A model generated the notes under the pieces. That model did no database searches. It was not told the origin of the DNA and saw only the letters and a list, made by a program, of their open reading frames with translations. Positions 14,588 to 61,651 of a stretch of 64,000 bases of DNA are shown piece by piece. Source of the stretch: Ginglymostoma cirratum. Its lineage: Eukaryota. Position numbers and translations under genes: made by a program. The stretch's first letter is position 1. Every line of letters starts with the position of its first letter. The stretch is from NCBI GenBank assembly GCA_024137785.1, contig JAHRHZ010000023.1, forward strand, positions 7,960,330-8,024,329, read 5' to 3'.

Positions 14588-14854
14588 ATGGCCGAACCGC
14601 GACGAGTGTCCCTGACTACCCTGCCCGTGTCGGCTCCTCTCTTGAAGAAGAAGAAAGAAGACAAGGAGGAGGCAGCAGCGGAGGAGGAAGAAGAAGAGGA
14701 GGAGGAAGAGGAAGGGGGCGAGGAGGCGACGGCCGTGATGGTGCTGAAGGGGGAAATAGCGGCCGTCACCTCGCGCCACACGCTGGCTCTCTTTGAGTCG
14801 AGCGAGAAGAGTTGCCCCGAGTTCTTCTACCCCGAGTTGATGCGAGTGCGGAAG
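14588..14854 (+). CDS. UBN1: UBN1 first coding exon, MAEPRRV...poly-Glu...LALFESSEKSCPEFFYPELMRVRK
   Basis: caacATGG Kozak context; CPEFFYPEL motif of the ubinuclein NHRD; ends CGG AAG|gtgagc; 267 nt; head-to-head with GLYR1, as for mammalian UBN1. Confidence 0.93.
14665..14713 (+). repeat. Coding GAG/GAA low-complexity repeat (poly-Glu) in the first UBN1 coding exon
   Basis: Encodes EEAAAEEEEEEEEEEE. Confidence 0.85.
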
Positions 14855-17800
14855 GTGAGCGATCCTTGTCTCTCCGAGCGTGAGTCCAGCGTGAAAAGTA
14901 ACGCAGATGCGCTCGATCTGGAGTACACCCCTCCCCTTGACCTTCCTTCCCCACCCCCCCCCCAAATGCCGTGTCACCGTTAATACGGAAACAATCTATG
15001 CCCGTCTTTTTGGAATCAATTTTGGAAAATAGTTACTTTAAAAAGACGTAGAAGCTCTCCCTTACCGCTCCGGACATTAAGATTAGTTCAGCTTTTCCTA
15101 GTTAGTTCTGAGTTTGCACCGGCACGTTAATTCTGCTCAGTGTCGTATTTTAAACACAGGGACAGATGGTATTGCATATATCTGATCTAGTTGACGTGAC
15201 CTAATCAGCTACTGTTTTCTGTTGTTCAAGGCCCCCCATTAATTGTTAATTTCGCTGAAAGTTTTAAGCAATAATCCACCTGGAAACTAAACAGTAGGAT
15301 TTAATGTTCTGTATTAGTAGCCGCTTTACTCAATTGTTGTCATATCCTGGTTATTCATGAGTCAGAATGTAAATTTAGCTCTCAAAATAATTTTTTTCAC
15401 AAAATAAGTTTTCAAAACTGAATAATTCAGAACAACATGAACATGAAATAAACTTGATTGCATGTGACAAAAGGCAGTTTTCATGCTGAAGACTGGTAAA
15501 CTACAACATTGCTTTGTATTCAGGTCTAGCACTTGAGATCAGGCTGTTGAAACTAAAATATTGAATCCATGTTGGCATCGTGAAACTAGCTCTTAGTATA
15601 TTGGACAAGCAAGTTAGCAAAAGAGAACAAGATATGATACTGAAATAAAATTGGAGTAGAGTTCTAGAATCACATTTGATCTGACTTGGAGCCTTTCTCT
15701 TGACTTATGTTATCCTGAAAGCTTTGCTAAACCACACACTAATGCTCTAGTTGTGACGTATATGCAGCCCAACTCAATCCCATAGATGGCCTGAATAAAA
15801 TGAACTGTATGAGTTTGTGGGAGAAAGAAAAGAAGACACCAAGTGTAAGTGGAGCACAGAGCAGACTATAGTATCAACAATTGCAATTTTCAGTGTAAAG
15901 CATTTAACCAGAAACATGGTTTGCCTGTAAAATGATAGAAAGTGGACAGTTGCTATGAAATATATAAAGGGTCAGAATTGGTTGTAGTATAGATGGGGAG
16001 ACGAAATAATGATTTCACATCCTGTTTGTTCTTGCATTGCATTCCGCGGTAACCAAATCTGAGATATTGAGCAAACAAGATGAATTCAAGGTTTCCATAA
16101 TTGTAAAGACTTTTCTGCTTTCTTGAATTGTTGCTTTGATCTCACTTTTAAAGAGGAAAGTCCAGGAAATCAAATTAACTGCATTGATATAATCAAGCCT
16201 TTTTTTCCCAAAGTTGCTTGTTTATAAATTTCACAGGGTTTAAAATAGAAATGCTTGGGTCTTACCTTCGAGTGATTTAATCAAAACATAATATCAAATA
16301 TTTTATTAAGCGATATTCAGAATCAGGTGGTCGGAACCAAGATTGGGGCAAGTTTTCATTCCTTCTACAATCTGACTTAATGGTTTTGCTGATTTGTCAT
16401 GTTGCAAACCCACATGAATGTTTGGCTTACATAAGCCATACATTTTAATAAAGTTTTTCAGAGGCAGTTTTGAAGTGTATGTGATATGTGAATTTTAAGC
16501 ACAATCTTACTCCTTTAATGTCCACAACCAATGAATTGCCTTTATTTACTAAGCCATTTCTGAATGCACATATCGTGGATGTATAGTTCCTGCAAAATCT
16601 TTTTCAGGCTGAATGTTGCAAAGAACATTAGCCCTTTCCACTACTTTGGTTATTTTTCTCAATGCTTCAATGTTTATGTCCCATTGTTGCAAAAAGTGCA
16701 TTTTCAAAGGTACATCACAACCACACTGACTTAATTACATTTGGCACACAGCAGATAAAATAACTGTTGATTAAAGCTCTTATCTGCTTTTTGCATAGGG
16801 AAGTAGTTCCAAATTGGGTCTTTCATTCACAAGTAACAGAAATAGACCACTCAGCTGAACCAGTCAAATGTTGATACTCCATACAAGTGTATAGTTCTAC
16901 TCTCATTTACTGAAACTATTCTCATGTCCTTTCAGCTCCATTCCTTCATTTGCCTATCCAATTAAATGCTGCCAAGAATTTCTGTCAACCATAAACGATC
17001 GGACTGAATTCCAGATTTGTTCAATTGTGAATGAATTTCTCCAAATCCCTTGCTCCAAATTGCTGCACCACATCGTCTTTACCCCTCATTCTTGATCCCA
17101 ACTTTGAACTATCCGTGTCTCTTCCTTTGATATTTTTACACATTTATGGCATCAGAGTCCACATTGATCAAGCCTTTTTACATTAGAACAATCTATTTTA
17201 GAGTAAAAGATATCACTTCACCTATGTTCATATTGCCTGTTACTTATGCAGGGCACATTGTATTAGTGATTCACTGAAACTTTAGGTTCATCTTGAAGGC
17301 AAAGCATGAATATTGGTGGTCTTTGACTAGTAAACCTTTGAATGCAACCCCAAAATTGTCAACCTTAAACTGTATTCTGCATTAATTACTAACCTGGTAC
17401 AGGACAAAATTTGTTTTGATGGGAATACTATACTGAAATGATTACCCTTCGCATTAACTCATTTTGCGGAGATATTTATTTTAATGGAATGGCTGGCATC
17501 TGATTGCTCTTTGTTACAAAATACAAATTTATTTTCAAAAAATAATTAAGCATCTATTTGAAATAAACATAATAGGAAGCAGACTTATGAATAGGTGGAA
17601 GAAAGATGGATTAAACCTATTGATCCTGGTCTTATCAATGTTATCCGAGCAAACATTGAATTAACTACGCGTTCAGTTGAGTTGCTACAGTTGCCATCAC
17701 TTGCAAGGTCAGATTGTAATATATTTGTTGTAGTGTCAGATCCGAATGCAGATGTCTTATACACACTATAATTTAATGCATTTTCCTTAGAACTAATATG

Positions 17801-20560
17801 AAAGATTTTCTATATGTTAGCTTCCCTGATGCAGATAAGTAACCACATTTTAATAAAGTGCGCGTTTCATTGCTGATATTGCTTAATTTTCAAGTATTTA
17901 AGTTGGGTGTGATTGAATTAGCTGATTGCTTGCAGTGCCAAATTTTTTTTTTGTGGACATAATCTTGGTACGTTTTGGATTTTGTCATATGATGTGTGCA
18001 GAAGGCCAAAGTGGTGATTAGACGTTTGATGCTGTATCTGTTGGCCTTTGATCTAATTTTGCTGGAGACTAGTGTTAAATGTAGAAGTAAACATTTGAAA
18101 TATTTAATAGCTGCCAAAAACAATTCTGGAGAAGAAATTTTGTGCCCTTCTTGGAGTGTAGTTCTCTTTCATACTGCCTGCAAGAGAAGAATGAATCAGA
18201 ATGTAATCTGTTCGAATAAAAGATCAATGTTTAATAATTTTACGACATTCCGCCTTTAAACATTACTTGAATTAACTCAAGTGTTGTTTCAGCGTGCTAT
18301 GCTGTGGGGTGATTGGGCAAGTTTTGTTTTTATGATATCTCTGGGTGTAGATTTTACCTGCATTTTTAGCAGATATTCCAGGCAGAAATTTATAGAAATT
18401 ATGCTAGTCCAGAAATTCGGCTTGCAAGAGAGCCAAAATAAGCAGAAGGAAATGTAGGATAAAAATGATTGATAGATTTTCTTTTGTCCCTTGTTGTGAA
18501 GAAACATTGTTTGCAATGAGGGAAGTGAAATAAACATTTTGTCAAAAGCTGTGATTAGTTTAGCTCCGCAAGGCAGTTTTAATCACTGTTCTCAAATTTG
18601 TCAATGGAACTGTTCTTTGGGAGAGCATGGCAGAATGCTGTATCTTTCACAATAGTGGTGAGACATGTTCAGCCTTTTGTTTTCCATTTATTGGATTGTT
18701 TGAAATACATTGCTCAAGTTTGCATTATTGGAAACCAATGTGAATAAAGTCAGCTGAGAAGTGTAACTTTTGAAGTTGTGCTAATATTATGACTTGAATT
18801 GTAAGAGATAAATCTCCATTCTCTTTCTCACCACCCCCTCCCCCTCTCACCTTTTATCCCCTCCCCCTTCCTTTCTTTCCTCTCCACTCCTTCCACAGGA
18901 CTTCCTTTTTGATCATTTTGCCACTGTTTGTAACTAAATATGGTTGTTTAGTATATTTTGCTTTCATTACTATTATCACATTACAAATGCTGATTGCGCA
19001 TACCCCCAAAATACATTCACTCAACTGAATTAGTAATTGGTATTTCAAATCTGTATAGGTAAAACCATTTTACAACAAGATGTACCCAGTGGTACCACAA
19101 CACTGGTGTGTTTTGCTTAAATAAAACATGGAATATTCTGTAGTAGATTTCTTAGAACTTGTTACATTTGAGCTGCAGAAGTATTGGTGAATTTGTACAC
19201 GAGATTATTTGTAATAGAGCACTTGTTCTAAGTACAAGATCAGATGGTTACTCTTTAGGATTATCTAGTTAAGCCAGTATTGTGTTTAGAATTGAATTAA
19301 TGTCTGGATTTACATTCAGATTTCCTTTAAAGCAATTATGCTTCAGTGTGCAAAGGCTTCAAAACTTATTCATACAATTTATGTTGAAGGTCCTGTGTGC
19401 ACAATGTTTCTCAGCAAAATCAGACAAAACTGATGAAATTGCACTGATTGCATTGTTTCAATATTAACAACCTTGATGTTTGGGGTTTTATCTGGCAGTA
19501 AAAAAGCGCCAGCTATAAATAGCAGCTTTCACAGTTCGGAAGAAGGTGTTATTAAAAATTATGATCAGTGGATCTATTCTAAGACTGCTGATTGAAAGTC
19601 AAAACAAAATTAAATGACCCCTAAAAAGTAACAGCCAACTTAAGTGAATCCTGAATGGTAACAATAAATGTGGTTTAAAGTAGTGAGTTGCTCTTTAGGC
19701 CTTTGTGTATTAACATGACTGAGAAATAAAGAAAATCTTCCAAGTATATTTATTCAACTGATATTGGAATTACAAATGGAGTGCAAAGTGTAATATTTGC
19801 CAGTGAAAATCTCATCTATGATTTGTCCAGTATCCTCCCGTGTTCCATGTTCTGTAACCTCATCTTATCAAAAACTCTATTTATGCCAAACATACTAAAT
19901 CATTTTCAGCTATCACTCCCTTTGTTGACTTATGCTGACTACTTATCTATGAATTCAAATTTTGACATTCTCCTCCCTTGGAAGTTGTACACTTCCAAGG
20001 CCATGCCCACCTCCATATCTTGCTTTCGCTATCTCTTATTTTTCTCATTCCAGCCTCCTTCACATTATCATTGATAGCCACATCATGGTTACCTTGATTT
20101 TATCCTCTGGAAATCTCTTCCAATTCCACATTTTAAGGCCAACTTCTTGATCAGACCTCCGAATACCACCTCCTCTGGCTTGGCATCCATCTTCTATACT
20201 AAAAAAAAATCAGCAAAACATCTTGTGACACTTTCTACTTTGCAGGTAGTGTGTAAAAGCAGTGGTTGTTGGTTGGTCACCTGTACCATCTCTATAAGAG
20301 GGCTGATTTATGTCGTCTCTATGGAGAGATGATCAGAATAAGTCTTGATTAATTAAGAGGTTTGTCTTGATGTTTGCTGCTTGGCTTCTCTCATTATCTC
20401 TGCAGCTTATGAGTGTTATTTCAAAGTCAGAAAAAGCTGCAGGAGTTTACCTGTGTGCTTTCATGTACTCTGCGATTTATTGGGTGTCTATTATGCATTA
20501 TACCAACAGGAAAGTCATAAGTATATTGACAACTTCTGTTAAATAGATAAGTGATAGGAT

Positions 20561-20766
20561 TTGAAAGTCACCATATTCCTATGGACCATATGCTGCTCTC
20601 TCATTAGACAGAAGACTGGTGGTAGTTTAACCTGAGAGCCAATATGCCTCAGGCAAGGGGAGAGCTTGAGAAGGAGTCCTTCATGGTGACCTTGGCTGGT
20701 GTAAGAATTGACCCCACAATATTGGTGTCACACTGCATCTCAAACCAGCTATCCAGCCAACTGAGC
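20561..20766 (-). mobile_element. Third tRNA-derived SINE-like element
   Basis: Minus strand begins gctcagttggctggatagctggtttg (A box) and has gggtcaattc (B-box-like). Confidence 0.5.
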
Positions 20767-20779
20767 AGGGGGTACCTTA

Positions 20780-21120
20780 ATTGAATCACATTGGATCCTG
20801 AGGAGAGTTGACTGGGTGCATGTGGAAAGAATGTTTCCTTTTGTGGGAGAATTGAGAACTAGGGGTCATAGTTTAAAAATAAGGGGGTCCCATTTAGGAT
20901 CGAGTTGAGGAAATGTATTTTTCCTTTGCGGATTGAGAGTCTTCTGGTTCCCTTAAAAGGCAGAACTTTTTAAATATTTTTAAGGCAGAAGTGGATTGCC
21001 AAGGGGTTGAAAGATTATCAGGATATGTAGGAATGTCGAGTTGAGGTTAAATCAGTTCTGCTAAGATCTTATTGAATGGCAGAACAGGCTAGAAGTGCTG
21101 AGTGGCCTACTGTTCCTTGT
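20780..21120 (+). mobile_element. Old CR1 3' fragment
   Basis: agaactaggggtcatagtttaaaaataagggg...attgaatggcagaacaggctagaagtgctgagtggcctac. Confidence 0.65.
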
Positions 21121-21242
21121 TTGTTTGATCTCAACTGTTAGCAGTAGCACATTTGACTCTAATACATTGTCAAAAACACCTTTGCGGTTGCTTTTCACGC
21201 AGAGGTATCTATCAAGTCATAAAAATAAAACAAAGACGGACA

Positions 21243-21342
21243 GCTCTGATAGAGGGTCACTGGACTCGAAATGTTAACTCTGCTTTCTTGCCACCGATGC
21301 TGCCAGACCTGCTGAGTTCCTCTGGCAATTTCTGTTTTTGTT
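21243..21342 (+). mobile_element. Short Penelope-derived repeat with mutated hammerhead
   Basis: ctgatagagggtcactggactcgaaatgttaactc...gatgctgccagacctgctgagtt; same family as 23160-23251. Confidence 0.7.
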
Positions 21343-21849
21343 CTATATCAAGACAGTTACTTTTGCAGCAAACTGGTGAACTCATCTTCCGATTTTAATA
21401 TTAAGCCTTAAAAGACATTTTGGAAGTAGTCCTGGTGTGGGTGGTGGTTTATCTGGTAAGTAATGAACTGGAAAATGTGTACAATGCATATCTTCTGGTC
21501 TCACTGGCTCTTGGCAGTTGAGATGCCATCCTGGAATATGTAAGCAGTGTTTCATGTGTGTTCTGAATACTTGTATTTTCGGATACCGGTTTAATGTTGC
21601 TATAGTACATTCCCAGCTTGTGGGGGTTTATAGCAAATTATGAAGAACAAAATACTTCCTCCTTCAGCTTATAACATGGCAGAATTTTCATTTGTAGTGT
21701 ATGTATTTTCGAATGTAACTTATTTCTTAATGATCATTGTAAGAAAGGTTTTTATCTAAATTACCTTGGCCAGTGTGTCTCAACGATGAGAATAGATAGA
21801 AACTTTCCTCACGCTGCCAGGCAGAGAATGGTTATTTTCCATAATTTTT

Positions 21850-22130
21850 TCATTTATTCATGATATGGGCATCACTGGCTAGGCCAACGTTTACTGCCCA
21901 TCCATAATTGCCCAGAAGGCCGCTACGACTTTGTGACTCTCTTACATTGCTGGTTGTAGATTTCCTTCCCTAAAAGATATCAGCGAATCAGGTGGGTCTT
22001 TGCAACAATTAACAGCTCTTCAGTCCTGATTTTTATTGAGTTCAGATTTCACCAACTACCACAGCGAGATTTGAATCCCTGTCCATTGGACTGGGGTTCT
22101 GAGTTGCTCATCCAGTGACATTAGCACCAC
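21850..22130 (-). mobile_element. Second-family SINE copy
   Basis: ttattcatgatatgggcatcactggctaggccaacgtttactgccc...gagatttgaatcc...atccagtgacatta. Confidence 0.6.
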
Positions 22131-23159
22131 ACCCTCCTATAGTAAGAGGGCCGTATCTGGTTCTCTAATTCTGGAAGGAAGTTATTGAATGCAGTGAAAA
22201 TCATTTTGAACAGACAGCTGATAACTTTTTAGCCTAGTATTGCCTTACTACATTTGATACACCAAGTCCATTTTCTTTAACAAAGCTATTCAGTTGTATG
22301 TTTTCAAATTAATTGTAAATTGATAAACGTAGCAGGCTGTGCTATACTGCTGTTAGAAACTACTATCCTCAGCACAAAAGTAAGAGTGCTGCTGACTGAT
22401 GGAAAATCACTACATGTTTGATTGTTTATTTTGCATACTCCTCTGCAGAATTATATGACGAGATTTAAAGTCAGTGAATCTTGGAGCTTGTGATTCTTGA
22501 TGATTGGCGAAAACATATCGGACATCAGCTGCTAGTCATCTAGACTGTCTTGATTTGCTCTGGATGCATTGTGTTCAACTAAGTTTTCTAATGCCAGGCT
22601 TCTAAAGTGAAATGCATAACCATGGAGTGAAAATGCGAACGGTAAACGAAATAGATTAACTTCCATGCTCCTTCCATGGTCGGTGGAAACCTACAATTTG
22701 AGTGGTTTGTCAACTGAAATGAGTGAAATTTTCCTCTTCCTGGTGTGGCATGAACAATAGCAAGAACGGTGGGAAAATCTGGCAGAAATGGCGCAAATCA
22801 TTTTCTCAGTATTCATCCAATTTTTTTATCTCCTGAAGTTGAGCGGTAACTTCAGAAACTAACAGTTGAGTGGCAACTATATCGTTTCCATACGTTTGCA
22901 TCTTAGCTTAACCCCCTTATTCATATATTACTTCTAATTCTCCTCTAGGTGGTGCATATTCTTAACACGTCCATCAGAGAGGGTACTTGTCCCTGCATGC
23001 TCCAGGGTGATCATCTGCCTCAACCCTTCATCCACACAAGTTGATGTTAACAAACCATCAGCTTCGCAACATCTTCATGCCGGCTCTCAGGTCAAATCAA
23101 ACACAACTTCAAGCCCTTTGGAGGTTGATAACACCTATAACTTACAGTTACTTACATTT

Positions 23160-23197
23160 AGTTCTGAGGAAGGGTCCACGGACCCGAAACGTTAACT
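23160..23197 (+). ncRNA. Minimal type I hammerhead ribozyme motif, core intact
   Basis: agtt-CTGAGGA-a-GGGTC-cacg-GACCC-GAAA-CGT-T-aact: stem I agtt/aact, 5-bp stem II, palindromic ACGT stem III, GUU cleavage triplet. Confidence 0.7.
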
Positions 23198-23251
23198 CCT
23201 TCGCAGATGTTGCCAGACCTGCTGAGCTTTTCCAGCAACTTTGTTTTTGTT
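23160..23251 (+). mobile_element. Short Penelope-derived repeat carrying the intact hammerhead
   Basis: Hammerhead followed by cagatgttgccagacctgctgagcttttccagcaactttgtttttgtt. Confidence 0.75.
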
Positions 23252-24655
23252 CCTATAACTTAGATGCTTCTAGAAGGTCACTTTGAGTTAATGTCATTCA
23301 TGCATCCCGTTCATCAAAACCTGATGCATGTTGTGGTCTTCGCTTTCTTAGTGCTCCCTCCCTTTACCACTTACTTGAATGATGCTAGCGTCTGTGAGCT
23401 CCACATTGCATCCTTAGTATATTTTTGCTGATTGTAGCACTGAGTTATGGGCTGTCAGCTTCTTTATGGTTTGCATTGCTTTCTGGGCACAGAGTTTTTA
23501 AGAGCTCTGGCTTGATGGGCTGAATGGTCCATATTCCTGTGTCTCCAATCGCTAGCTTCTGTGATTTTGTATTACCTCATTGTGCAGATGGAGAGATTGG
23601 CAGCTTGTGATGATGTGGAGTATTGAGCAGGCAATCTATCAATGAGACAGGGAGTGAAAAGTCACTATGGCACCATGCTGTGCCAAGGCAAGTAGCATTT
23701 GCATCACATGTCAGATAATGACCATCTCAAACATGGGAGAATTTAACTGTCGCCCTGAATGTTCAGTGGTCTTGCATCCGATGATATTGGAGGTCTCCAG
23801 TTTACAAACATGTGTCTTCAGAATGCTTGTACGTAAGAATGTGATCCATACAGGGGTAATATTTTTAAAGATCCTACTTATGAACATTTCCTGAACTTAT
23901 GAGCTGCTATTTTATATTGTCTTGCATTGTGCTCTGACTTGCATATGGACTCCAGACGAGAATCCATTCACAAACCAGGGATTGCCTGTGCAGTGAAGAT
24001 ATTCTGAGCATGCCTCTCGCGATATACTGACGGTGAGACATGATGTAACTTTGGAACTCCTTGCCACAGATCAGTGGGGGCAGAGTCCTTGTGTATATTT
24101 AAGACTGAGATAGAAATTCTTGATCAGTAGGGGCATTGAGAGTTAGGAGGAAAAGGCAAGAATATGGATGAGAGGAATTGTTGGATCAACCATGAGCCTG
24201 TTGAATGGCGGAGCAGACTTGTGGATCTGAATGGCCTAATCCTGTTCCTGTTTCTTAGTCTTGTAGCACAAATTGTGTACTGTGGAGACTCTGTCTGTGG
24301 GATAGGCCACTTTTCCTGCAGTGAGTCAAAATGAGGACTTGATTGTGGTAGAAGTGAATAAGAGAGCAGTTGGTGGTGATGCATGAACAGGACAGGGTTT
24401 GAGATGTCCCCATTGAGTGCAAAGAAAGCATGGTGGGCAGGAAAGATTCATCCTCGATGGTGAGGTGGATGAGAACTGTGAGTGGACACGCAATACAGAG
24501 AGCTGTCATCCATCAGCCTTGATGAGATGCATGACCAATGACCACGTACAGGTTCTAAGCCAGTATTAGGTATCCTCTGCCCAGTGTTTCATTTTCTGTG
24601 TGACAGGAAGGACCAATACAGTCAGTTCCCATCATCTTGGGTGCAATCTACTGTC

Positions 24656-25055
24656 NNNNNNNNNNNNNNNNNNNNNNNNNNNNNNNNNNNNNNNNNNNNN
24701 NNNNNNNNNNNNNNNNNNNNNNNNNNNNNNNNNNNNNNNNNNNNNNNNNNNNNNNNNNNNNNNNNNNNNNNNNNNNNNNNNNNNNNNNNNNNNNNNNNNN
24801 NNNNNNNNNNNNNNNNNNNNNNNNNNNNNNNNNNNNNNNNNNNNNNNNNNNNNNNNNNNNNNNNNNNNNNNNNNNNNNNNNNNNNNNNNNNNNNNNNNNN
24901 NNNNNNNNNNNNNNNNNNNNNNNNNNNNNNNNNNNNNNNNNNNNNNNNNNNNNNNNNNNNNNNNNNNNNNNNNNNNNNNNNNNNNNNNNNNNNNNNNNNN
25001 NNNNNNNNNNNNNNNNNNNNNNNNNNNNNNNNNNNNNNNNNNNNNNNNNNNNNNN
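24656..25055. other. Assembly gap (400 N)
   Basis: Run of N; an identical 47-mer lies on both sides. Confidence 0.98.
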
Positions 25056-25647
25056 AGGACCAATACAGTCAGTTCCCATCATCTTGGGTGCAATCTACTG
25101 TCGTATATGTAGCATCCTGGATAGGTGGATAGTGTGGTTAGCAATCTGATTGTCCCAGTTTAAAAACTTTTCGTACCCCATATTGCTTTGAAATTTAAAG
25201 CAGCTCATGTGTGGATCAGGACATGTACACAATGCACTAATGTATAAAGTGCTTCAGTCTTTACAGGGAGTTTGAGTCAGCTAGTGTGCATAACACAGTT
25301 ATGTTGTTGATCCTCACTGTTATATACAATGACCACATACAGGTCCTAAGCCAGTATTAGGTATCCTCTTTAGTGATGAATAAGGTGAAGGCTGTGGGAG
25401 TCTGAGAGGAGCTGAAATCGCAAAGCTCTTCCCAATTATTCTTTCTGTGTTCATAGACTCATACAGTACAGAAGAAGCCCTTCAGCCCATCAAGTCTATA
25501 TTGCCAAAAAATACAACTAATTTCACTAGTCCATTCTCCCTCATTAGGCCCTTGGCCTTGAATAACATGATATTTCAAGTTTTCATCCAAATACTTTTTA
25601 AAGGTTGTGAGGTTCCCAACCTCAACAAATCTCCCAGGCAGATGAAT

Positions 25648-25945
25648 CTGAGGTGGGGTGATGTCACTGGACTAATAATAATAATCCAGAGCCTCCGGTT
25701 CTGGAAGTATGGGTTTGAATCCCGCCATGGTAGATGGTGAAATTTGAATTCAATAATAAGCTGGCCCAGTAGTGGCCATGCAACTTATGATGATTGTTGT
25801 AAACCATGTAGTTCACTTGTGTCCATCCTTGCCTGTTTTGGCTGGTGCTGTGGGTATGGAGTCTCTCAATGTTGTTAACTCTTAACTGCCCTCTGTGCAA
25901 TTTGGGATGGGCAATAAATGATAGATTAGCCAGAAATACCAGTGT
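25648..25945 (+). mobile_element. Second tRNA-type SINE family
   Basis: gatgtcactggactaataa...gggtttgaatcccgccatggtagatggtgaaatttgaattcaat...gggatgggcaataaatg; related copies near 7060-7388(-), 12640-12760(+), 21850-22130(-) and 42978-43315(-). Confidence 0.65.
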
Positions 25946-25984
25946 TCTAAACATTATATGATGCTAATGTTTTTTTTTAATTAG

Positions 25985-26077
25985 AAAGACGCAGCTAAAC
26001 ATTTTGATGCTCCTTTTAATGATGACAAAAGGGAAGAAGAAATTGAGGCTTTGGCTAAAAAGTTTGAAGAGAAATAC
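25985..26077 (+). CDS. UBN1: UBN1 coding exon 2, KDAAKHFDAPFNDDKREEEIEALAKKFEEKY
   Basis: ttttaattag|AAA...AAA TAC|gtgagt; 93 nt; EALAxKFEEKY motif. Confidence 0.95.
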
Positions 26078-29805: not shown

Positions 29806-32800
29806 GTTTACAACTCTTGAAAAATAGCACTAACATTTTAATTATCCTCTCCGGCAGCTTTTACTGTGAAGGAAAATTGTTCAGCAGCTGCTTTTTTGAT
29901 ATTAATACTCTAAGTATTTAGTTGACAATCGTATTCCGGACCAAGATGTTTCTGTCATGAGAACTTGAATTGTAGAAATATTTCTACAGCTGAAATACTG
30001 TAATCCCTTGATAACATTCAGCGTGTTGCACTGGCTGCTTTTTGTTGGAAAAAAAAATGTTTCCACCTCCTTGGAAATTGTTGTGTGTAGTGAGCATAGT
30101 TTTCAAAACCTCAATAGGAATTTTTTTATATAAGACTAGCTGTAAGGGTGCAATTATGATTTGACTTCAGAATTATCTGACATCTAAGAATGAGGTAAAC
30201 ACTAACAAGCTTATCCTTCTCGATAGGTATGCATCATTTATCTTTCTCCAAATCTGTTACATTTTGGGTACGTGTAATTAATTGCTGCTTAGTTGGTATG
30301 TTTATATGATCTCTTGTACAGATGTTTGATGTGCATTTGAAAAAAAAACTCCTGGTTAGTAAGTATTGCTATGTACCTGTAACATACTATCTATCACTGA
30401 AGGGGCAGAGTTTTTAGATCTAGTAGTTAACAGACCTCAGCTCGTAACCTCAACTGAATAGCCCCACTGGATCGAGGGTGTTAGTTCTACTTGGGCCTAC
30501 AGCCAATGTCCTTGTTAAAGCAAGAGATATTTGGAGTAAGATAGATTCTAGAGTGGAAAAACCAGTAAATAAGTTATCTCTGAGTCTGAAGTTGAAGATG
30601 AATATTGGCACCAGGGAAAGCTATTTTGTTATCAGACAAAAATGTAGAGAGATCAAAATGCTGGCTTCTGGCTAGGAAGCTTGAGGGTAGCTCAAGAAAC
30701 CAGTTTAAAAAAGTAACATTTGTAGAGATCAGGGCAATATCAGGGGGTGAAAAAATGAACAAAGTCTTCAAAAATATCATTCAGTCATAAATGGTTCCCA
30801 TGGTAGCTCTTAAATGTCCTGGCTGAGTAGGGATTGAAAGTGTTCAAAACCATGAGAACATTGTGATATGGTCCTTTTGGCTAATGCAATCCTTGTCACT
30901 GCTTTCTTTCCCATTAGCCACTTAGTTAACTCCTATCTCTTACTCGGTATCCATACTGTAATAATCCTCTGTTTCTAATTTAGTTTTGCAGTGAATTCCA
31001 CATTGTAATAATCTTTTATGTAAAAATTTCTTCAAAACTTGCTTTAATTCTCATTTTGAAATCTATGATTCATTGTTTCTGTTCCTTGGTGTGACCATAA
31101 CCTTAACGTGACCATTCATGATCTAGGAAACCTCTACCAGTTCACCCTTTAACTTTAACAGTTCTAGAAAGTTGGCTTCTAATTTCTTCAGTCTCTCTTC
31201 AAAATTGTGACTGTTCAACCTTGAACGTTTCTGAGTATCTGTCCTCCTGCTTTTCTGTTGGACACTTTTAAACCTCCTTAACGGAGGATAGCACAAAATT
31301 CTAAACAAAGTTGTTCCAAATATAATATTGCATTGCTTTTGCAATGCATCCCAACAGGTAAAGAACAGTTCCAATGGCCCCTTTTTTTGTGTTGCTGCGA
31401 ACTTTTGAGGCCATCTGTTCTTAATGATCTGGTTAATTGCCCATCAGTTTCATTATGTATCAGCTAAGTTTAAAATCTTGCCACTTAAGGTGCTATTAAC
31501 TCTGCTTTGATTGAATCCTCTCGTTCTTCAAGTGAAGCAAATAAAACTTACCTGTAATGTTTTTCTGCATGGTTGCTAACTTGCTGAGTGATTCTGGCAC
31601 ATTCTGCATTTAATACTTCATTCAAGTATGAGTTTAAGTGCCAAGATAAGTAAATGGCAAATTGGAGCATAACAGTTTTTGAAATGATTTGTTATTATTG
31701 ACTCTGTCCTCATATTAGTAGGAAACAACATGATTCTTTATTTCCATTTATCTCAAGGGCCAGATAGTCTCAGATTTGAAAAAAAATGGGCTGACAAACC
31801 TATTCACAATAATTAATCATCAATTAAATGCCTATCTGTTAAATTCACCAAAAGCTGTCAGGCATTGAACAAATCAGGGACAATGTTTACATTTGAACTG
31901 ATTAGCTTTTCAGCTAGTTTATTTCAAAACTTAACTGAAGTGGTATTTAATCTATTATCTACTGTGGCAGAATTTGAAAAGCCAATACTGAACTAATTCT
32001 CCAGATGAAATGCTAGCATTGCTTAAAACAACAGCAATTGGTATCTTTCTGTCTTTGCGTACCAGTCTGAATGGTTTACAAATTAATTGCAAGGTATAGA
32101 GCAATGACTACTTGGTGCTAAATTTCAAAATCATTGTTACTTGACATCACGTTCAGTTTAAAATGTGCATATCTACTTGTAATATTAAACCTGATCTCTC
32201 TTTGGCAGGATTTAAAGATCTAATTTTTTCCTGCCAGGAAGGAAATTTTTTTGCATTACTGGAATAAGAAAGTGGGGAGCATATTAAAATATTTTAGAAA
32301 CTCCAGTCCTACCCAAAATGCTAAAATGTGCTTGATTGAAGATGCTAGTCTGTTTATTTTGACAACCATTTTGATATTACAAGTGTATTATAAAATGGAA
32401 ATTATTTTTGTGCTTTCCTATAAAACAAAATTTCCCTGTGTCACAGACTCTTGCTGTCATCTGTTCACAATACAGGGAAGGATTTCCATTACAGTGCATA
32501 TATCAGGAGCAAAATGACCACTACTTGCAGAGAGACCTATGAAAATATTTTAAACTAACAGTTTAAAAGAAGTCAAAATTCTACAGCAAAGTAAATCGTG
32601 TAAATGAATAAGACAGCCAACCAAAAATTTCTCAGTCAGTGATATGTGTAACAATTGGCTTGAAGTATTTTGTTTACTACAGAGCAGTTGGAATTCCATT
32701 TCCATGAACTTAAGTTTGATTTGTCAAGGCGTGTGATTTCATTAATACTGCAGATTATGGCACACTGCATACCTCAGTGTGCAACACATAATATTAGTGA

Positions 32801-34265: not shown

Positions 34266-36529
34266 GTAAGTCCATTGGATTTTTAAGTCACTACTCTTGA
34301 CAGTGAATCAACGTAGCACCAGCGGTGTTTCAATATTATTGGTAGAATTGCCAATTGAGAGACATAGTAAAAGCAAAATACTGCAGATACTGAGAATCCG
34401 AAATCACAACACAAAATGCTACAACTGCTTTTGCAGATCCACCTGCACCTGTAGAACACAAAATGGAGCCAGTTTGACCGGAGTGTTTATACAGGGTCAT
34501 CAACACGAAGTGTTAACTGTTTCTCCCCCGATGTTGCTTGACCAGCTACGTATTTCAAGGAGTTTCTTTTCCGCTTTCAGACGTGGTGTGGTCGTACAAA
34601 AGTAACATGACTTTATTGTAACAAACACAGTCCCCAAAACTGAGACGTAATTTTGGCAAGTTACTGATTCTTTTAGCTCCACCCCCTAACTGGTCACTAA
34701 CAAGTCTGATAGAGAATTCAGAAAAAAATCCTCAGCGAACGCGTGGTGAGGATGTGGAACTCACCACCGTAGGGGGTAGTTGATGCAAAAATTAAAGGTG
34801 GACTGAGCGGTAGACAAATATATAGTAGAAAATAGAGTAGAGGGTTACAGTGAAAGGTTTGAGATGAGAAAAAATTGGAGGAGGATCAAGTGAAGCCTGA
34901 CCACCAACATGGACTTGTTAGGCCAAAGGGCTCTGTCTGTACTGTGCCCAAAATTAACCTTTGTCAAAGATGGAAAAAATACTTCATTTTCTTTGGCAGC
35001 CCCTTAGCGTAGAGGATGACCTGCCTGTTTCACTCCGGCGGAGTGGATTCTGTAGTGACTGTATAGTCCAATCTGGAAAAATACACTAAAGTTTCATAAG
35101 TGCAATTTTCTCCATATTACTTACCCATCAGAAACAAAGGCCAATTAGTACCTCGTGGCAGCAGTGTGCCTTGATCCAGCTGTTACCAAGCTATTTGTCC
35201 ATCTCTTTCAGGATCAGTACATGGAATGGGTGGAATTTATTTTAAAATGAATCTTTCCTCAAAAGCAAGCTTCTTTTCTGGAATGTTACTTGCAGTGAAC
35301 TTTTTTTTAATATAAATTAGACAACTTCTGCATGATACACAGTCTTAGTTTATAATGTGAACCCACCAAATAAATTAATCAGGGAGACTATATAACACGA
35401 AGCAATGGATAAACTTTTCCTGCAATTTATGAAATTGTTTTTGTAACAAGTATACAAGTAAAATTGTGCTACAGGAATGTCAAAAATTTGAGTGTCATTG
35501 AGCAACATTGTCCTGTCCCTTCTAAGTCGCTCCCCTGGTTGTTGCTGCTTGGTGTTGCGAAAAATAATATGATTACTCGGAAAACTGCTGCTCAGTAGCA
35601 ATAAGCCAATAGCTCATGCAAATGTATTTAAAATATAAATTGAGCATAATAGGACGGCAGCCTTAGATGTTTTTGTGGCAGTGGAATACCTCCAGTTTCA
35701 TCTCTCCTGTTCATAATTCCAAGCGATTTTAACATAATAACTGATACTAGGAAAAGGAGTAATGAGTTCAATTTCTAATATTTAACTGTAAAATCCAACA
35801 TTTAGGCACCCATCTCATAACAAACTCTGTTGCATTCATTTAGGCTGTGTCTGAGCTACAGCCAGAAACGAAAGGAAGTGTTCAAAACCTCTGGTCATCC
35901 AATAGCAAAAAAATTAGATTATTTTTATTAAAATAATTAATTTCAGGAATAATGGCCATGTCAGACACAAGTAAGGAAGTTCGAATGAACTGAAATCATG
36001 GTATAAAAGACGCTGAATATTCTGTCTTTTGGGAATCGTTTTTCCTCCATATTTTGGGACACAACCTTGAAAGTTCATGGGGGGTTCTCCAGGATTTGGC
36101 CATATCTTCATCAAAAGACTGGACGAACACTTCGGAGAGCAATATAGGTGGCAATTTATGCCAAAGGCCCACTACGTCAGGATTGGTGAAAACCCGCTGC
36201 AGAAATTAAGGGTCATAGTATTTAAAATTTCAAGTTACTTGAATGAAAGGTAAGTCTGTCCTTTCAAATCCTTCTATTACAAGTAGACTTGCCAAAATTC
36301 CACTTTGATGATCCAAGTGATGCACACTTACTGTGTTCCAAAGCTTCAAGTAATGCTGCTATTAAACAATTTTATGGTCCCTTACCTAATGAGTATTTTA
36401 ACTGATGCAAGTCTTCCAGTCCAACCCTCAATGAACTTAAGAAAATGGAAATCTTTGGAAAGATTGTTCTCACTCTGGTTGTGCCTTTTTTTAATCCTCA
36501 TCCTTGACATCTGATGTTTTTGTAATCAG

Positions 36530-36995
36530 GTTTATGCCACTGAATGTCCATAAAGAAGATAAAAAGAAAAAGAAAAAATACATGGGAACCTTGGGTGTGA
36601 AAGAGATGTTAAAAAAGTTTGAGAAAGAGAAGGAAGCATTGAAGAAACGAGAGGATCAGAAGAGCTTGCCCACTTCTCAGACTATGGTTGGCACTCTTCT
36701 TGAAACTGATAACAGCTCAATAAACATTAATGTTTCAGACCCTCTGCTTTCACTTATCGGATCAGCTAATGAGAGTGATCTTCTGAAAGTGGCCAGCACT
36801 GTGGACTTAGAAATAGATCTAGAACGTCTTCTGAATGAATCTCCTCCGGGCAGTCCTCTTAATGATTTTGATGATGGCAGTGATCCTCTCCCTGTACTAC
36901 AGTACTCAACAGCGGGTCAAACTCCAAAGCAAGTCCCCACATTACCAGAAGGGCTTCCAGCACTACTAGAAAAGCGTATTAAAGAGCTGACACAG
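36530..36995 (+). CDS. UBN1: UBN1 coding exon 6, FMPLNVHKEDKKKKKKY...DPLLSLIGS...LPEGLPALLEKRIKELTQ
   Basis: taatcag|G TTT...ACA CAG|gtaag; 466 nt; lies inside ORF 36504..37010. Confidence 0.96.
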
Positions 36996-44362: not shown

Positions 44363-45171
44363 GTAAGTATAATGCAACAATCATTGGTTTCCTTTCAGAA
44401 AAGTGAGGCATTTTTCTTTTGAAAAGATGAAACTAATTGGTGCCTTAGAAAAATTGTGAAGGGATTTGATAGGTTGCTGTACCAAATTTGTCTATTTGGG
44501 GAGTACAAAACTAGAAGGTACAGAGGAAATCCATTAAAGAATTTCAGGATGGAAACTCTTGAGTGGTTGCAAATAGCGTTTTCTTAAATGCATCGGTGTT
44601 AGGCAAGTACAAGTGGTATATGCTAGCAGGATTTAGCAAATTAAGGTGCAAGGAAGCTCGTGTTTAGAATAAGCAGCAGCATGATCAGTTAGGCTGATTA
44701 TCCTGTAAATTCTACGTAATTTAAATTTAGGGGTGTTGAATTCCCATGAAAGAGTTTATTTTACTCTATCAGCCAAACATATGGGCTGATTTTCACAGTT
44801 TCATTAGATGCACAAATCAAAACTATTTAACAATTTTCTATTAGATTACATAAATGTATACGATGTACTTTTTAAAAATTGCTTTTCAAATTAAACTTGT
44901 CACATCATGTCTTAAGTACTTTGCCTCAAGGCAGGTCCTTGGTTCATTGTCTGCCACTCATCTTGAGCAGCTCCCTTGGCAGTTTTTGTCAATGGTAATT
45001 TGTAATTGCTTTCCACACTCAAGCATAGGGCATGAAGGCAGATCCTAAATTTACCTCAGTAGAAGTGAAATCAAACTCGTACTGTTGGTTTTATTTTGAA
45101 CCTGGAATAAATGTTAGTGATTAGCACAGCGTTTAGTGAACCTAGAGTTCAGCTTAGGGGAAAAAGTTCCC

Positions 45172-45352
45172 AAAGAAGTGCAGATGCTGGAAATCAGAAA
45201 CAAAAACAGAAATTGCTAAGAAGTCCAGCAGACCTGGCAGCATCTGTACAGAGAAAATAGAATTAAAATTTTGTGTCCAGTGGCCCATCTTCAAAACTGT
45301 ACAGATGCTGTCAGGCCTGCTAAGCTTTTCCAGTAATTTGTTTTTGTTTGTG
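45172..45352. mobile_element. Same short repeat family in inverted (foldback) form
   Basis: aaacaaaaacagaaattgct...cagcatctgtaca and tgtacagatgctg...agtaatttgtttttgttt arms flank a decayed minus-strand hammerhead. Confidence 0.7.
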
Positions 45353-45891
45353 CAGATTACGAATGTGCGTATGAAGGGCTGCATGGTCGAAATAACTTGG
45401 TGAATCTTGTTCTAATGTTTGGAGAATTGTGCAAGGCCAGCTATTCTCCATCTAAATTCATGATACCCCTTGCCAACACCTGAAGCTCTGCTCCGAGAGA
45501 GCAAATTTAAACAATTTACTCTTGTTTTTCTGCTGCGGTACATCATTCCTCATGCTGCATGAACAAAGTGTCTCCTTGTATTGTTAGTTGTGTTGTGTGA
45601 TGTGAATAACAAGTCATTGAAGTGGTGGTAAAGCTGATTTCTTGCCATCCAAGTACTTAGTGCAGGACAGAGAGTGGCTAAAGTACAAATGAACAAATCT
45701 GTTTCCGTTATATAACCTGGTGCTGTTTGAACTGCCAGTTTTAAAATTATTTTATCTTGCAATGTTTATACGTAGTATTGAAGCATGAATGTGTATTATT
45801 ACAGAAGTATAGTTGTTTCTAATTTCAATCATGTGTCTGTAAGGATCTCACTGTGCACTCTTCATCTATTTTGATGTGTTTGTGCTTTCAG

Positions 45892-49000: not shown

Positions 49001-50239
49001 ATGCTTGTTTATTTGACCATGGTTAAAGATTAAAGTTAAACACTGCTGTGGGCTTTGTTTAACCACAAGATTGTCTGATATAAAACCAGCATGAGTATGA
49101 AGCAACTGTTGATTGCAGTGTGGAGAGAGTGATCAGTAAAGTTGTGGTTCTATCTATATGCTTCATGCTTCACTATTAATAAGTCTGCTGAAAGGCCAAG
49201 TGGTGACAGTTAAGGCTGTACATTAGTTCAAGAGTCTTACTACCACTGAATGATCAAATCATGAGTCAGCAGTAGACAGTTAGAGAGAGGAGATACTTAT
49301 CAACTGTGGATGACCACCTTCTTTATTAAAGTTTTAAACTGAAATGATTTTTAATTGGTATGTATAAATGGACAGTTGTTGTCATATAAGTAATCAAAGC
49401 CATTTGTTTTATTTGTCAATGCATTGTTCTTATTTCCAATCAGATTTTCCTCAATTAGATATAATAATGTAACAATCTTTTTTAGTACATGGCTCTTTTA
49501 TATATTTCCTTTAAAAGCCATTTTCTTATCATCCAGTGGTAATGCTGATGCACTTTTTTCCCCTACCTTTTGGAAAGCTAAATCTTATTTTGTCACTCCA
49601 TTTCTTTTCCTAGCCATAATTCCTGCTTTCAGCAGCTTAAATATCACAGCACTGTGCTGTACTTTGTACAAGTTGCATCTGCTTTTTCGACCTTTTACAT
49701 GTGGAAATTATGAATCATTAAGAGTAGGCAGTGCTTCTTTTATTTTACCTATAGACAACAGCATATCATGCCATCAGAGAAAAACACCCTTTGTTTTTAA
49801 AAAGTTAAGACCTAAGTTTAAATTACTCCCTTCCGTTCATTCTTCATTAGGTTTTATGGTTATACTGTACCCTGAATGCATTGTAACCATTGTAGATCAA
49901 AGCTTGCGATGGAGATGAAATGCTGACATTGAAGGGTGGGGTGAAATTACCTTTTGTATTGAGAAACTTTATAGGAAAGTTCCTATAGTTCAGGAGATTA
50001 TGCAAGGTGAAAGGAATAGGAGAGAAGATCAGTTTGAGCGCTTGTGATTAGATAAAGCCATGAATCAGTTTTGGTCATGTTGTTTTCGCCTTTGCCTCTG
50101 AGCAAAAAGATTTTGGGCTCAAACTCCACATGAGGCTCTGGGTGCCCAAGCCAAATTGCCACTCTGAACAGTACCAAAGTGAATTATTTTTTTTTTTTTG
50201 TTTGAAGAGCCTTCCTTCGTATGAGTGATTTAGATATAG

Positions 50240-50578
50240 ATAAAAACAGAAATTGCTGGAGAAACTTACCAGGTCTAGCAGCACCTGTAGAAAGCAAGCA
50301 GAGTTGACATTCTGAAGAATGGTCACTGGACCCAAAACATCAACTCTACTTTCTGCCAGCAGGTCTAGCAGCATCTGTTTCTGATTTCGAACATCCACAG
50401 TTCTTTGTTTTTTGTTTAGTGATTAAATAGAGATCTTGTTTGGATGGTTGCTTCAGATCAAGGTCTCTGATATCTTCTGAAGGAGGGTCATTGGAATCGA
50501 AACGTTACTGCTAAGTTTTTCCAGCAGTTTCTGTTTTTGCTTCTGATTTCCAGCATCTGCAATTCTTTTTGTTTTTTC
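50240..50578. mobile_element. Two adjacent copies of the same short repeat family, each with a mutated hammerhead
   Basis: ctgaagaatggtcactggacccaaaacatc (~50312) and ctgaaggagggtcattggaatcgaaacgtt (~50477), with family flanks. Confidence 0.7.
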
Positions 50579-57705: not shown

Positions 57706-59681
57706 GTTCAATATGTTGCTTGCTTTAATAGACTGTATAAGGCATTTGTATCAGTAGTATGTTTATGGACTGCAACTGGATAAAAATATAATTGTGGATT
57801 ATATGTGTGTTTTATATGATAACTTAGTATGAGCGTATTGTTTGATGTGTCTGCGTATCAAATCATTCAAATTGTGCTACTGTTTGAGTGCTCCATAACT
57901 GGAGTCACTGGGGAAACAATGAGTGAAGTGAGAGTGCATAACATTGGCAATTACCAGAATGGACCGTTGATAGGCAAAGTTGGGGAGGAGATCCCTGAAT
58001 GACCTCAGAATTTAGGTTAGAGGTGTACACTTGATGCTGTAGGCATAAATAATAATATAGAATGATTTGGAAGAAGCTAAATGCTTTTCATAGATGCTGC
58101 CAGACCTGCTGAGTTTCTCCAGCACTTTGTTTTTATTTCCCATTTCCAGCATTTGCTTTCTTTTTCTTTTAAGTAATACAAGCATAGTTTTGGTGAGAGA
58201 AGACAAGTTGTTTAAATTTGTGGATCCATAAGAAGTTGTGAGGCCCTTGAAGATGATAGTAACAAATGATGCACCAAAGTGTGAAAGAGTCACATGTAAC
58301 ATCAGTAAGAAATGGAACAAGCAAGATGAAAACAATGTTAGAATTGATGAGTCAGTGCAGAATTCTATTAATGTGATTGGATAATTTGAAAGTCAGCAGC
58401 AGTTTCTGTAATTTTTGAAATTTGTGGCTGGAAGGAGAGACTGCAAGTCCAATTAGTTTTTGGAAAGTTAAGAGGATCACTTTGCTTAAAAATATATCAA
58501 ATTTTCTTTGTACGTACTTTCTAAGGAGCAGGAAAGGTGGTGTGGGAGTAACAGATAAGAGATAAATTAGAAACAAAATTGGAGGTATTTATTTCAATCT
58601 AGGAAAGATATGTGGTTAGCATTGGAGGTCTGGAGTTTGATAGTTGTGGTAGAGACAAAGCTTGATATTATTCCTAACAGAAGGACTGAATGGAACCATG
58701 CTTGGGGGTGCTTTGGTGAGATTTGCAAATGATTTCCTTCCTCCAAATCTCCATGTACGACATTAAGCCAGCGAATGCTGAACTTCTGGAAATGCAGACG
58801 TTTCTCCATGTGCTGTATTCGCTGTGTACTCTAAACGTTTTCAAGTCATGTACGTAATGACATAGACTTGTTGCAAGTTAAAATCATCTGCAGAAACAAT
58901 AGGGTATTTTTCTTTCTTTGCCATACGGATAGTAATAAAAACAATTAACTATCCTTTGTAGAAAATCACCCGATTTTTATACAATTATTCTGAGCTCTGC
59001 CAGGTTGTCGTGCTAGCGGTGATGATAAACTTTTCCCTATGAGCCCTGACTACATAGCTTAAAATAGCACTCTGTATTTGTAATATTTTTGATTGGTTTA
59101 TTTGTGCTGAATTATTGGCGTTTTTGTGTAATGAATACACAATTGTAAATGATTTGAAGCTGTGTAAACACATTTTGTAGTACCTCTTGGACATAGGGGA
59201 GATATTTAAATCTGGACGTGGGCTTTCCTTTATTCTACTTGCCAGTGCTTTCTCATGTACTCTTTTACCTTTTCTAATTTTCTCCCTCACCCCCCACACT
59301 TTTAATACTCCTTTGGGGGCTCTCTTTGAGCTCTGTATATCTGAATGAATCACCTTCATGTTATATATAGGAGTTGATATTTAGAGCACCATCCTTTCTC
59401 ATGGACACTCCAGATTTTGTGCAAGCAAGAAGAATGAGAGAGTTCATGTAATTTAGTTACATTTTTAAAATATGTTAATATGCCTTTGAATGAAATTCAA
59501 CAATGCTTTAGCTATATTGATTGCGCAGTGTCTTTTGCTTCAAATAAATAAAACGTTTCTATGCATCGATCAGAAATTTGCATTTAAGTTACAGTTGGAA
59601 CACACATACTGAGAAAATAGAACATGGTAGGTTTTCTCTGGGCCCTATCTCTTTACACATATTTCTTACATTGTGCTACAG

Positions 59682-59825: not shown

Positions 59826-61651
59826 GTACATGGCAAAGGACAGTAAACAGTATATACTTCAAGTGAAGTTAAATGTCACTGCATAAAGAGCTGTTAAATG
59901 AGCATCCTGCAAAGAATGAGAATAAGCCTTCAGAAGAGGCAAGGTAGAACAACTGTATGTGCTCGGCAAGGCTGTCCTGCTGTTCCTCTGATCCAAGACC
60001 AGTCCTTGAACTGGACCTGGAAAGTGAAGAGATAGGCAGTGGTTGACTCTTCCTTGCAAGTTTAACAAAGAGATGAGTGTTTTCTTAAAGTAAGACAGCT
60101 TTGTCAGTATACGTACATGTTGGGAGAAATTTTAATAAAAAAGTGCCAAGATAGCAAGGCACTAATAGCCTCAACCGTGGTAATATTTCTGACTTGCAGC
60201 TTATCCAGGGTAGATTTTCCATGAGGTCATGAATGAATGAATGGTTTCTGTCCTCCGGAGAGGTTCTGGTCCTTTTTTCAATGTTCCAATTAGTCTTCCA
60301 AGTTAAGTTTATGTTGTGCACTGATGAGAGATTGTGAGGCTGTGACTGTGCTTCAATTGTTAATAGTGTGAAATATGGCACCAGTTTGAGGAAGTTGGGG
60401 AAAGATAGTTATAGTGTTTGGTTTCCCCGTAGCAGCTGAAAGAGGTTGAAATATATTGCTGTAATTGTAACATAGCACTTGAGAGAAAGCTCAAGTGGAA
60501 ATGTGAGAAACAATTAATTGCGTAGTGTTCTCGAAGAATTGACACTGGCAGTGCGCTCCAAAAGAACATATTTTGTGTTCTTCTGTTTGACAGCTCCTGG
60601 ACCATAGAACTGTAGAATAAGAGAAATGGCAGAGTCTCAGACCATAGCTTTGCTGTGCTCCTTAAGTTTTTTTTTTAATATAGAATCACAAACAGGTCTC
60701 GGGTGCAGTAATCCGAGAATTCACCTCCACTGTGGTGAGTAACTTGGCTTGGTCCAGTTTTGCCTTCAGGAGGATATAACTGGTCTTATCTCAGCTCAAC
60801 ATCGTCACTGCGGTGTGAGAAAATTAGTTTCTCATTCCAGTGTCTCTGTTTAACATTTTTGACTGTAATGGAAAGGATTTGGATGGTTACATGTCCAGTA
60901 ATCCTAGGATACCTCAATTACTGCTTCCTTAAATTTGTCTGCTAAAACTATGCACAAACCTAAAAGGAGAACTGTGTTAAAACTTTAATGATTTTAAATG
61001 TAAGTTATATTAACTGTGTTAAATGTGTCTACCTGATTTTGGTGTGTTCACTGTAAATACATGTTTCATTCTGAGCAGAAAATTCTGGAACAACTCAACA
61101 GGTCAGAATGTATCTGAGATGATCAGCGTTAATATTTTTGGGTTGACTTCCAGCATCTGCAGTTCTTTGCTTTTGCATTACTGAACAATATTTAAACATG
61201 ATGTTTAATCTGTGATGTTCTAGCCTTTAGCTGTATTACATTTACGTTTGCCTGAAATCCCAAAGAAGGTAAAATCTTAGCTCAAAAATGATTTGCAAAT
61301 CAGATGTCATGCATAAATACGACCGTGCAAAATGTTTCATAAAATGAGATTGCAGGTAAATCCAAGGCTGAAAGTTATGCTGGTGGTGTTATAATGCTCC
61401 AGGATTAATAATGATTAAGCATGTTGTTCATCAGCTGTGTCTCCCTTTTTTTTTTGCCTTCCACTGATGCTTGCCAACAGCTTCAGTGTGCATACTCTCA
61501 GCTGGAAAATACTTGAAGCAATTTCTGATGGTGGTTGTAACATGGCATGGACATTGTACTAGGTTGTGGCAAGTTGTTTAAAAAAAGGTTTCACAGTCTG
61601 CATAGTATGAAAGTAAGGGAAAAAAATCATAGATTTATTTTTCCTCAACAG

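Follow-up and report, generated by a model that had tools for sequence, protein, structure and literature searches.

Minimal hammerhead ribozymes (min-HHRs) have been described from Penelope-like retroelements by Cervera and De la Pena 2014, and the consulted part of that work (PMC4209133) characterizes them by an extra base between positions 9 and 10.1, a G10.1-C11.1 pair, palindromic positions 15.2/16.2 and a short helix I. The same source reports that solo copies occur genome-wide in the thousands and are linked to truncated elements; the single motif showed no cleavage, and dimers cleaved at a low level. Insertions of endonuclease-bearing Penelope elements with an inverted 5' copy and an optional 30-40-bp tail, as well as non-autonomous derivatives, are described in the accessible sections of PMC8557442. 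For the Poseidon element of Anolis carolinensis, the portion of PMC11167929 available to us reports two internal reverse transcription (RT) starts that define the tail in vitro, insertions that arise from uncut RNA, a ribozyme that did not cleave in the absence of protein, and a cut site at which RNA-seq showed no ends. Finally, the available text of a preprint (bioRxiv 10.64898/2026.07.22.740005) defines retrozymes as tandem and records them in one chondrichthyan genome.

The motif analyzed here lies in a 64-kb stretch of DNA from the shark Ginglymostoma cirratum (hereafter, the window). It is an ordinary member of a known hammerhead kind and probably inert. With the Penelope min-HHR, as far as the consulted part of PMC4209133 goes, it shares the CUGANGA-H and GAAA boxes, the lack of a helix III loop, a 4-bp helix I, a U-rich 5' side and the occurrence of thousands of solo copies, whereas its stem II has 5 bp compared to 7-8 in Schistosoma (5 in other listed members); the alignment rows examined from that source include no cartilaginous fish. 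The shark family that carries the motif resembles the insertions in the sections of PMC8557442 named above in its opposed arms, a tail on one arm only and a hammerhead in the terminal repeat, but most of its copies share one sharp boundary at stem I in place of scattered truncation sites. With Poseidon (PMC11167929, same portion) it has in common a stem III-less ribozyme, two 3' ends and an uncut ribozyme in its copies; unlike Poseidon, whose ORF starts in stem II and whose protein is known, the shark family has neither a reading frame conserved across its subfamilies nor an assigned protein. Non-LTR retrozymes, in the parts of the preprint and of PMC7229834 that we could consult, are likewise non-coding, Penelope-related and equipped with a type I hammerhead. 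An identity with these was rejected, since tandem units of at least 2 ribozymes are required, and the present copy is solo with a target duplication, its nearest sister being dead and 1.9 kb away. Amniote intronic hammerheads (RECK and others; PMC6155905, in part) also are type I hammerheads in host introns, but they are conserved across classes and have tertiary contacts, whereas the shark copy is one of very many and gives no sign of constraint. A published description of the shark family's ribozyme was not found in our search, outside which lay most subscription papers and repeat databases.

A minimal hammerhead motif in the first coding intron of UBN1

The letters at 23160-23197 of the plus strand (Table 1) are exactly those in which a preliminary description of this DNA had seen a conserved core, a perfect stem II and a 4-bp stem I. 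Every hammerhead core base is present (C3 U4 G5 A6 N7 G8 A9, G12 A13 A14 A15.1 and U16.1 H17), together with a 5-bp stem II, and the features of the min-HHR class are found as well, i.e., the extra A23171, the G23172-C23185 pair, the ACGU palindrome at 15.2/16.2 and the 4-bp helix I. The lone adenine between the CUGAGGA box and stem II, correctly read before, is thus not a spacer but a typical feature of this class. Each term of the published >80% consensus is matched, and the CGUU end recurs in several of the members listed (PMC4209133, supplementary file 2, in part), in agreement with the earlier assignment to minimal type I hammerheads of the Penelope kind.

A pattern search found 1 match in the 64 kb compared to a chance mean of 0.04, with 4 of 100 shuffles holding one; when at least 4 pairs were required in each of stems I and II, 1 match was observed versus 0 in 150 simulated windows. 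The motif is confirmed as real, beyond chance. Rfam gave no match at gathering score for the motif region, and the 6 weak matches around the site (up to E=10) included no hammerhead model, a silence that is expected because the motif is devoid of helix III. A metagenome scan with a 30-letter motif returned 0 matches. Since A15.1-C-G-U16.1 runs without a loop, a monomer fold with helix III and loop contacts is unavailable, and stem III can therefore form only between two molecules. Of the self-complementary ACGU stem III that had been proposed, the palindrome stands, but its formation within a monomer does not.

The identity of the host gene was established through the exon at 36534-36992, which shows 100% identity over 153 aa to a Stegostoma tigrinum protein labelled ubinuclein-1-like, all 43 protein matches of this exon being labelled ubinuclein-1. 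Coding exons 1 and 2 were placed with two other shark orthologues, and from their boundaries (Table 1) it follows that the motif is in sense orientation in the first coding intron, as previously stated, with the donor ~8.3 kb upstream and the acceptor ~2.8 kb downstream. Judging from the gene structure, it should be transcribed with the UBN1 pre-mRNA; the intron flanks had zero read depth in runs X21 and X22, of which 24% and 57%, respectively, were read. One contig (X1 record 1, 22792-23233, 1 difference) crosses the cut site and was not counted as uncut RNA, the kind of run being unrecorded.

Two further observations concern the gene model. Protein P0001 (isoform X5) starts at a Met in exon 3 (window position 28053), so some annotated UBN1 transcripts may exclude intron 1 as defined here. 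Moreover, a 400-N gap between identical 47-bp repeats (24609-25102), probably an assembly artefact, makes the length of intron 1 approximate and could hide a family copy.

Table 1. Coordinates of the motif, its carrier repeat, the neighboring UBN1 exons and further family loci in the window.
Feature	Position	Strand	Remarks
Minimal type I hammerhead motif	23160..23197	+	sequence, pattern match, stem test, PMC4209133 consensus (source seen in part)
Stem I, 5' strand	23160-63	+	pairs with 3' strand 23194-97
CUGAGGA box	23164-70	+	C3 = 23164, A9 = 23170
Extra A after A9	23171	+	
Stem II	23172-76/23181-85		5 Watson-Crick pairs, 4-nt loop; G10.1 23172, C11.1 23185
GAAA	23186-89		G12 23186, A15.1 23189
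C15.2, G16.2, U16.1, U17	23190, 23191, 23192, 23193		
Predicted cut, GUU site	between 23193 and 23194		
Remainder of repeat	23198..23251	+	shortened pyrimidine tract, hairpin, T-rich end; tail absent
Left target-site duplication copy, 11 bp	23134..23144	+	
Non-family filler at 5' junction, 15 nt	23145..23159	+	not in family reads; within organism B contig X9 record 24
Right target-site duplication copy	23252..23262	+	first 3 nt match family too (microhomology)
UBN1 coding exon 1	14588..14854	+	shark orthologues; donor GT at 14855
UBN1 intron 1	14855-25984	+	
UBN1 coding exon 2	25985..26077	+	shark orthologues; acceptor AG 25983-84
Nearest sister copy	21242..21341	+	same intron, 1.9 kb upstream; G8/A9 altered, catalytically dead; tail-less
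Weak family fragment	31575..31623	+	E 0.043
Decayed family locus, two opposed arms	34369..34584		profile search
Family locus, opposed arms, one tailed and one tail-less	45167..45362		core broken
Family locus, opposed arms, one tailed and one tail-less	50238..50413		G12 altered
Family copy, tailed, internal deletion	50472..50574	+	A9 altered
Family copy, tailed	58084..58169	+	ribozyme head absent
Decayed family fragments, both strands	61074..61173		profile search

A solo insertion shared with a second species

The carrier of the motif is a solo 92-bp repeat copy with the motif at its front and an 11-bp target duplication; an 11-mer was shared in this way in only 1 of 635 control placements. Compared to the majority in family reads, the copy has 4 substitutions in ~94 nt (23177, 23178, 23203 and 23210), and the two that fall inside the motif, 23177 and 23178, are both in loop II. 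It is without 8-10 nt behind stem I, stops ahead of a tail of at least 30 nt and has no inverted arm. The filler at the 5' junction resembles re-copied target and element-start sequence and may represent an end-joining scar.

Several minor observations can be added. A 10-mer that includes filler (23144-23153) recurs at ~21353-21362, just behind the sister 1.8 kb upstream, possibly by chance. The loss of 8-10 nt (at 23198-23199) may be private to the lineage of the window, and an older, unrelated repeat (22988-23085; contigs with ~82% identity) is situated just upstream of the copy. The T-rich end together with the target duplication (23240-23263) ends in AG and resembles a cryptic splice acceptor.

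The insertion was also recovered from a related species, organism B. One contig spans 23048-23184 with 7 differences and a 13-nt insertion, reaching 40 letters past the left junction, and a second one covers 23229-23700 with 23 differences in 472 positions and 23 letters in the element, which is below our 31-letter bridging rule. Taken together, both contigs indicate that the insertion predates a split of ~5% in intron DNA. The ~100 flank nt hold 4 listed changes, with up to 3 more of uncertain position in the rest, and we see no sign of extra conservation of the motif in this comparison, which comprises one related species, cover to 23184 and few sites. Inside the motif, organism B bases are swamped by family reads, and the runs aligned were 6 of the 24 listed. 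By arithmetic, the length of X3 record 16 would fit an orthologue with ~23 extra bases, 13 of them being the X9 insertion.

At 4.3% divergence, the 15-base core would remain untouched with a chance of 0.52 and core plus stems (33 bases) with a chance of 0.23, the latter dropping to 0.06 at 8%. That core and stems have been kept since before the organism B split, at this chance of ~0.06-0.23, is an observation against an inactive pseudo-LTR stub, as is the placement of its two motif changes in loop II.

An abundant repeat family with a sharp 5' end

A family profile was built from seven copies and searched across the 64-kb window, where it found 14 pieces at nine loci, this copy included. These loci, along with matches in shark runs, confirm that a short dispersed repeat carries the motif, as proposed; the suggested unit of ~90 bp applies to this copy (92 bp) but not to the family, whose unit is ~100 nt, or ~135 nt with tail. 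Shark sequencing runs are very rich in the family, with 25,250 of 15.6 million contigs (run X3) and 11,285 of 12.9 million poly(A) reads (run X21) matching the 1-kb stretch at 88% likeness, nearly all of them on the repeat; these figures are aligned contigs and reads, not copy numbers.

At least 3333 of 4029 family RNA reads, an alignment outside which head-less copies fell, have loose ends before 23160-63, where the upstream agreement is 0.35-0.43 (0.33-0.37 for contigs), which indicates that most copies share nothing upstream of stem I. Furthermore, the distance between stem I and the start of the copy is no more than 2 nt for all 5 clear heads in the window, and opposite-strand joints cluster at 23160-63. 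Opposed arms were found at 4 of the 9 window loci, and the 8 aligned window pieces have two 3' ends, 4 being tail-less and 4 carrying a ~35-nt tail. Family RNA reads are even on both strands and cross the cut site, from a library that may be unstranded; no pile-up of read ends was seen for the family, a weak test given the fragmented libraries. The subfamilies share no conserved reading frame.

The family majority keeps the CUGANGA/GAAA core, as the preliminary description had required of the consensus. In the family reads, G12 is altered in 635/4011 (16%) compared to 723/4003 (18%) for the loop base 23180, so the catalytic G12 decays about as fast as a loop base, counts that are unphased and, through an 82% likeness cut-off, biased toward copies like this one. 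Alterations of C11.1 (637/4011), C15.2 (503/3994) and G16.2 (958/3955) are similarly recorded, and U17 is changed to C in 266/3710 reads; the listed motif variation is at CpG sites, save for U17 to C and the two loop bases private to the copy. Assuming independent sites, we estimate that one third to one half of aligned reads are motif-complete, an unphased value subject to the bias of the cut-off. Because family reads lose G12 about as often as a loop base, the intact core of the present copy is unremarkable. Of the 6 heads in the window it is the one with an intact core; the other 5 are broken, and the 6 differ by decay only.

Origin of the copy

We consider the motif copy to be a likely Penelope-like pseudo-LTR stub, predicted to be inactive in the UBN1 pre-mRNA (probability of roughly 0.6). 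A Penelope parent would have provided an RT-endonuclease protein that nicks the A/T-rich target. Reverse transcription would begin inside the element RNA, at the first of two sites ~35 nt apart, resulting in the tail-less end; copying of the uncut RNA would proceed until it halted at the leading edge of stem I, where the RNA probably has its 5' end, and repair would leave the filler and the 11-bp duplication. At the family level, inverted arms and an optional tail, traits of endonuclease-bearing Penelope elements, are present, with this copy having neither; both are ordinary products of Penelope insertion. A parent ORF linked to the family was not found in the window, nor was a majority sequence upstream of stem I in family reads. 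When the 47-aa frame that reads through the copy was searched against proteins, a weak test, 0 of 22 candidates scored.

The defined 5' end fits both stubs of a coding element and a separate non-autonomous family. The latter would be a self-standing mini-element of 100-135 nt, transcribed on its own and served in trans by a Penelope protein, of which this copy would be an old and inert member; this origin, which corresponds to the derivation given in the preliminary description, we regard as possible but rather unlikely. It explains family reads without an upstream majority equally well. Random 5' truncation would not give a sharp common 5' end without upstream consensus, and the very high abundance of the repeat in X3 contigs and X21 reads as well as the lack of a linked ORF in the window also speak for it, non-autonomous Penelope derivatives being on record (PMC8557442; bioRxiv 10.64898/2026.07.22.740005; both in the parts consulted). 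However, insertions of coding elements leave behind target duplications, opposed arms and two kinds of 3' end, and the copies are dispersed rather than tandem: the 15 joints listed, besides which there are 31 more, comprise 2 of the 'goes back' type, found in 3 contigs. In addition, reads on both strands and across the cut site, with the reservation about strandedness made above, resemble those of passengers in host transcripts.

Taken by itself, the UBN1 locus is of minor importance. The family is of more use: by beginning sharply at stem I, ending at either of two 3' sites and retaining the uncut ribozyme, its copies resemble the genomic trace of RT that starts internally on uncut RNA, as demonstrated in vitro for the anole element, and they would allow this model to be tested on a large scale in a shark genome.

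Predicted folding and activity

Active hammerheads would be expected to arise when two copies swap their stem I strands and pair their ACGU palindromes, so that each core cleaves its partner strand, a reaction in which the protein of the element would probably assist. GUU cut sites are slower than GUC sites. The preliminary description envisaged self-cleavage at the locus as well as pairing with sister copies, and nearest-neighbour folding, which ignores tertiary contacts, protein help and co-transcriptional timing, argues against both. The predicted minimum-energy structure differs from the hammerhead fold (folding z -0.36). In the isolated 38-mer, stem II is predicted at 0.997 and stem I at 0.49 (0.43-0.49 for stem I over 38-41-mers); when the sequence is extended by 23198-207, this segment is predicted to pair with the 5' half of the ribozyme, leaving 2e-5 to 4e-4 for the hammerhead fold in three contexts, and stem III is in any case beyond the reach of a monomer. 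At a predicted -17.1 kcal/mol, the strand-swapped active homodimer is less stable than two separate monomers (-19.0) and than a stem II duplex that would be inactive (-26.9), a deficit that widens with the flanks left open. The heterodimer with the sister at 21242 is likewise weaker than the monomers (-7.5 versus -16.8 kcal/mol), and this sister was ruled out as a substrate partner on energy. With the 5 other window heads broken, there is no intact sense partner in the 64-kb window. On these predictions, the locus is very probably inert, whether it is a stub or a mini-element, and with neither a partner nor a sign of constraint, the UBN1 intron is likely spliced normally.

It is worth noting that, in the predicted fold (23163-23207), it is the pyrimidine run behind stem I that pairs with the purine-rich 5' half of the ribozyme. 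Since the family majority has a similar run, this pairing may serve as an intrinsic off-state, or it may simply result from a tract that resembles a splice acceptor and ends in CAG.

A low rate of cutting of the UBN1 pre-mRNA, through family RNA in trans or the element protein and with some effect on splicing or level, appears improbable to us. The core is complete, in sense, in intron 1 and retained in two species, the abundant family RNA offers partners in principle, and both a protein-assisted Penelope ribozyme (PMC11167929) and effects of an intronic ribozyme on host mRNA (CPEB3, PMC10919898) have been published, according to the parts of these papers available to us. Nevertheless, the dimer energetics are unfavourable and the competing fold would dominate as soon as 23198-207 is made; organism B shows no excess conservation, the family lacks a read-end pile-up (weak, from fragmented libraries), the tail is absent, and five sense heads in UBN1 suggest tolerance. 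If such partner- or protein-dependent cutting were true, transposon activity would be tied to host pre-mRNA processing.

Shark introns might even hold a very large pool of core-complete sense hammerhead halves that cut only in the presence of Penelope RNA or protein, an idea to which we give very little credence; equally far-fetched is the corollary that the present copy is one such switch, kept since before the split of the two species. If true, element activity would trigger the cleavage of pre-mRNAs, e.g., that of the histone-chaperone subunit UBN1.

A coincidental hammerhead match in a repeat unrelated to Penelope would agree with the missing Rfam match, folding z-scores near zero and the lack of a visible parent ORF, but is largely refuted by the 0 matches in 150 simulated windows, by a family majority that carries the whole motif and by a second family in the window, in which a ribozyme of the same layout but with other stems directly follows a GIY-YIG remnant.

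Further remnants in the window

The second family is represented in UBN1 intron 6 by a 1.2-kb remnant with a fold-back structure (40725-41970), derived from another Penelope-like element. Its two outer ends each carry a hammerhead, and a GIY-YIG remnant that does not reach the curated Pfam cut-off (E 0.005) occupies 41501-41713. Of the two ribozymes, the antisense copy on the minus strand (40771) has a complete core, an AUAU palindrome and a G-U pair at 10.1/11.1, and the sense copy (~41923) has lost G12. By analogy, a hammerhead behind a GIY-YIG remnant would support the Penelope link of the family in UBN1 intron 1. A second long fold-back of ~0.9 kb, located at 55661-56579, has arms that are 80-87% complementary and a LINE-like translation.
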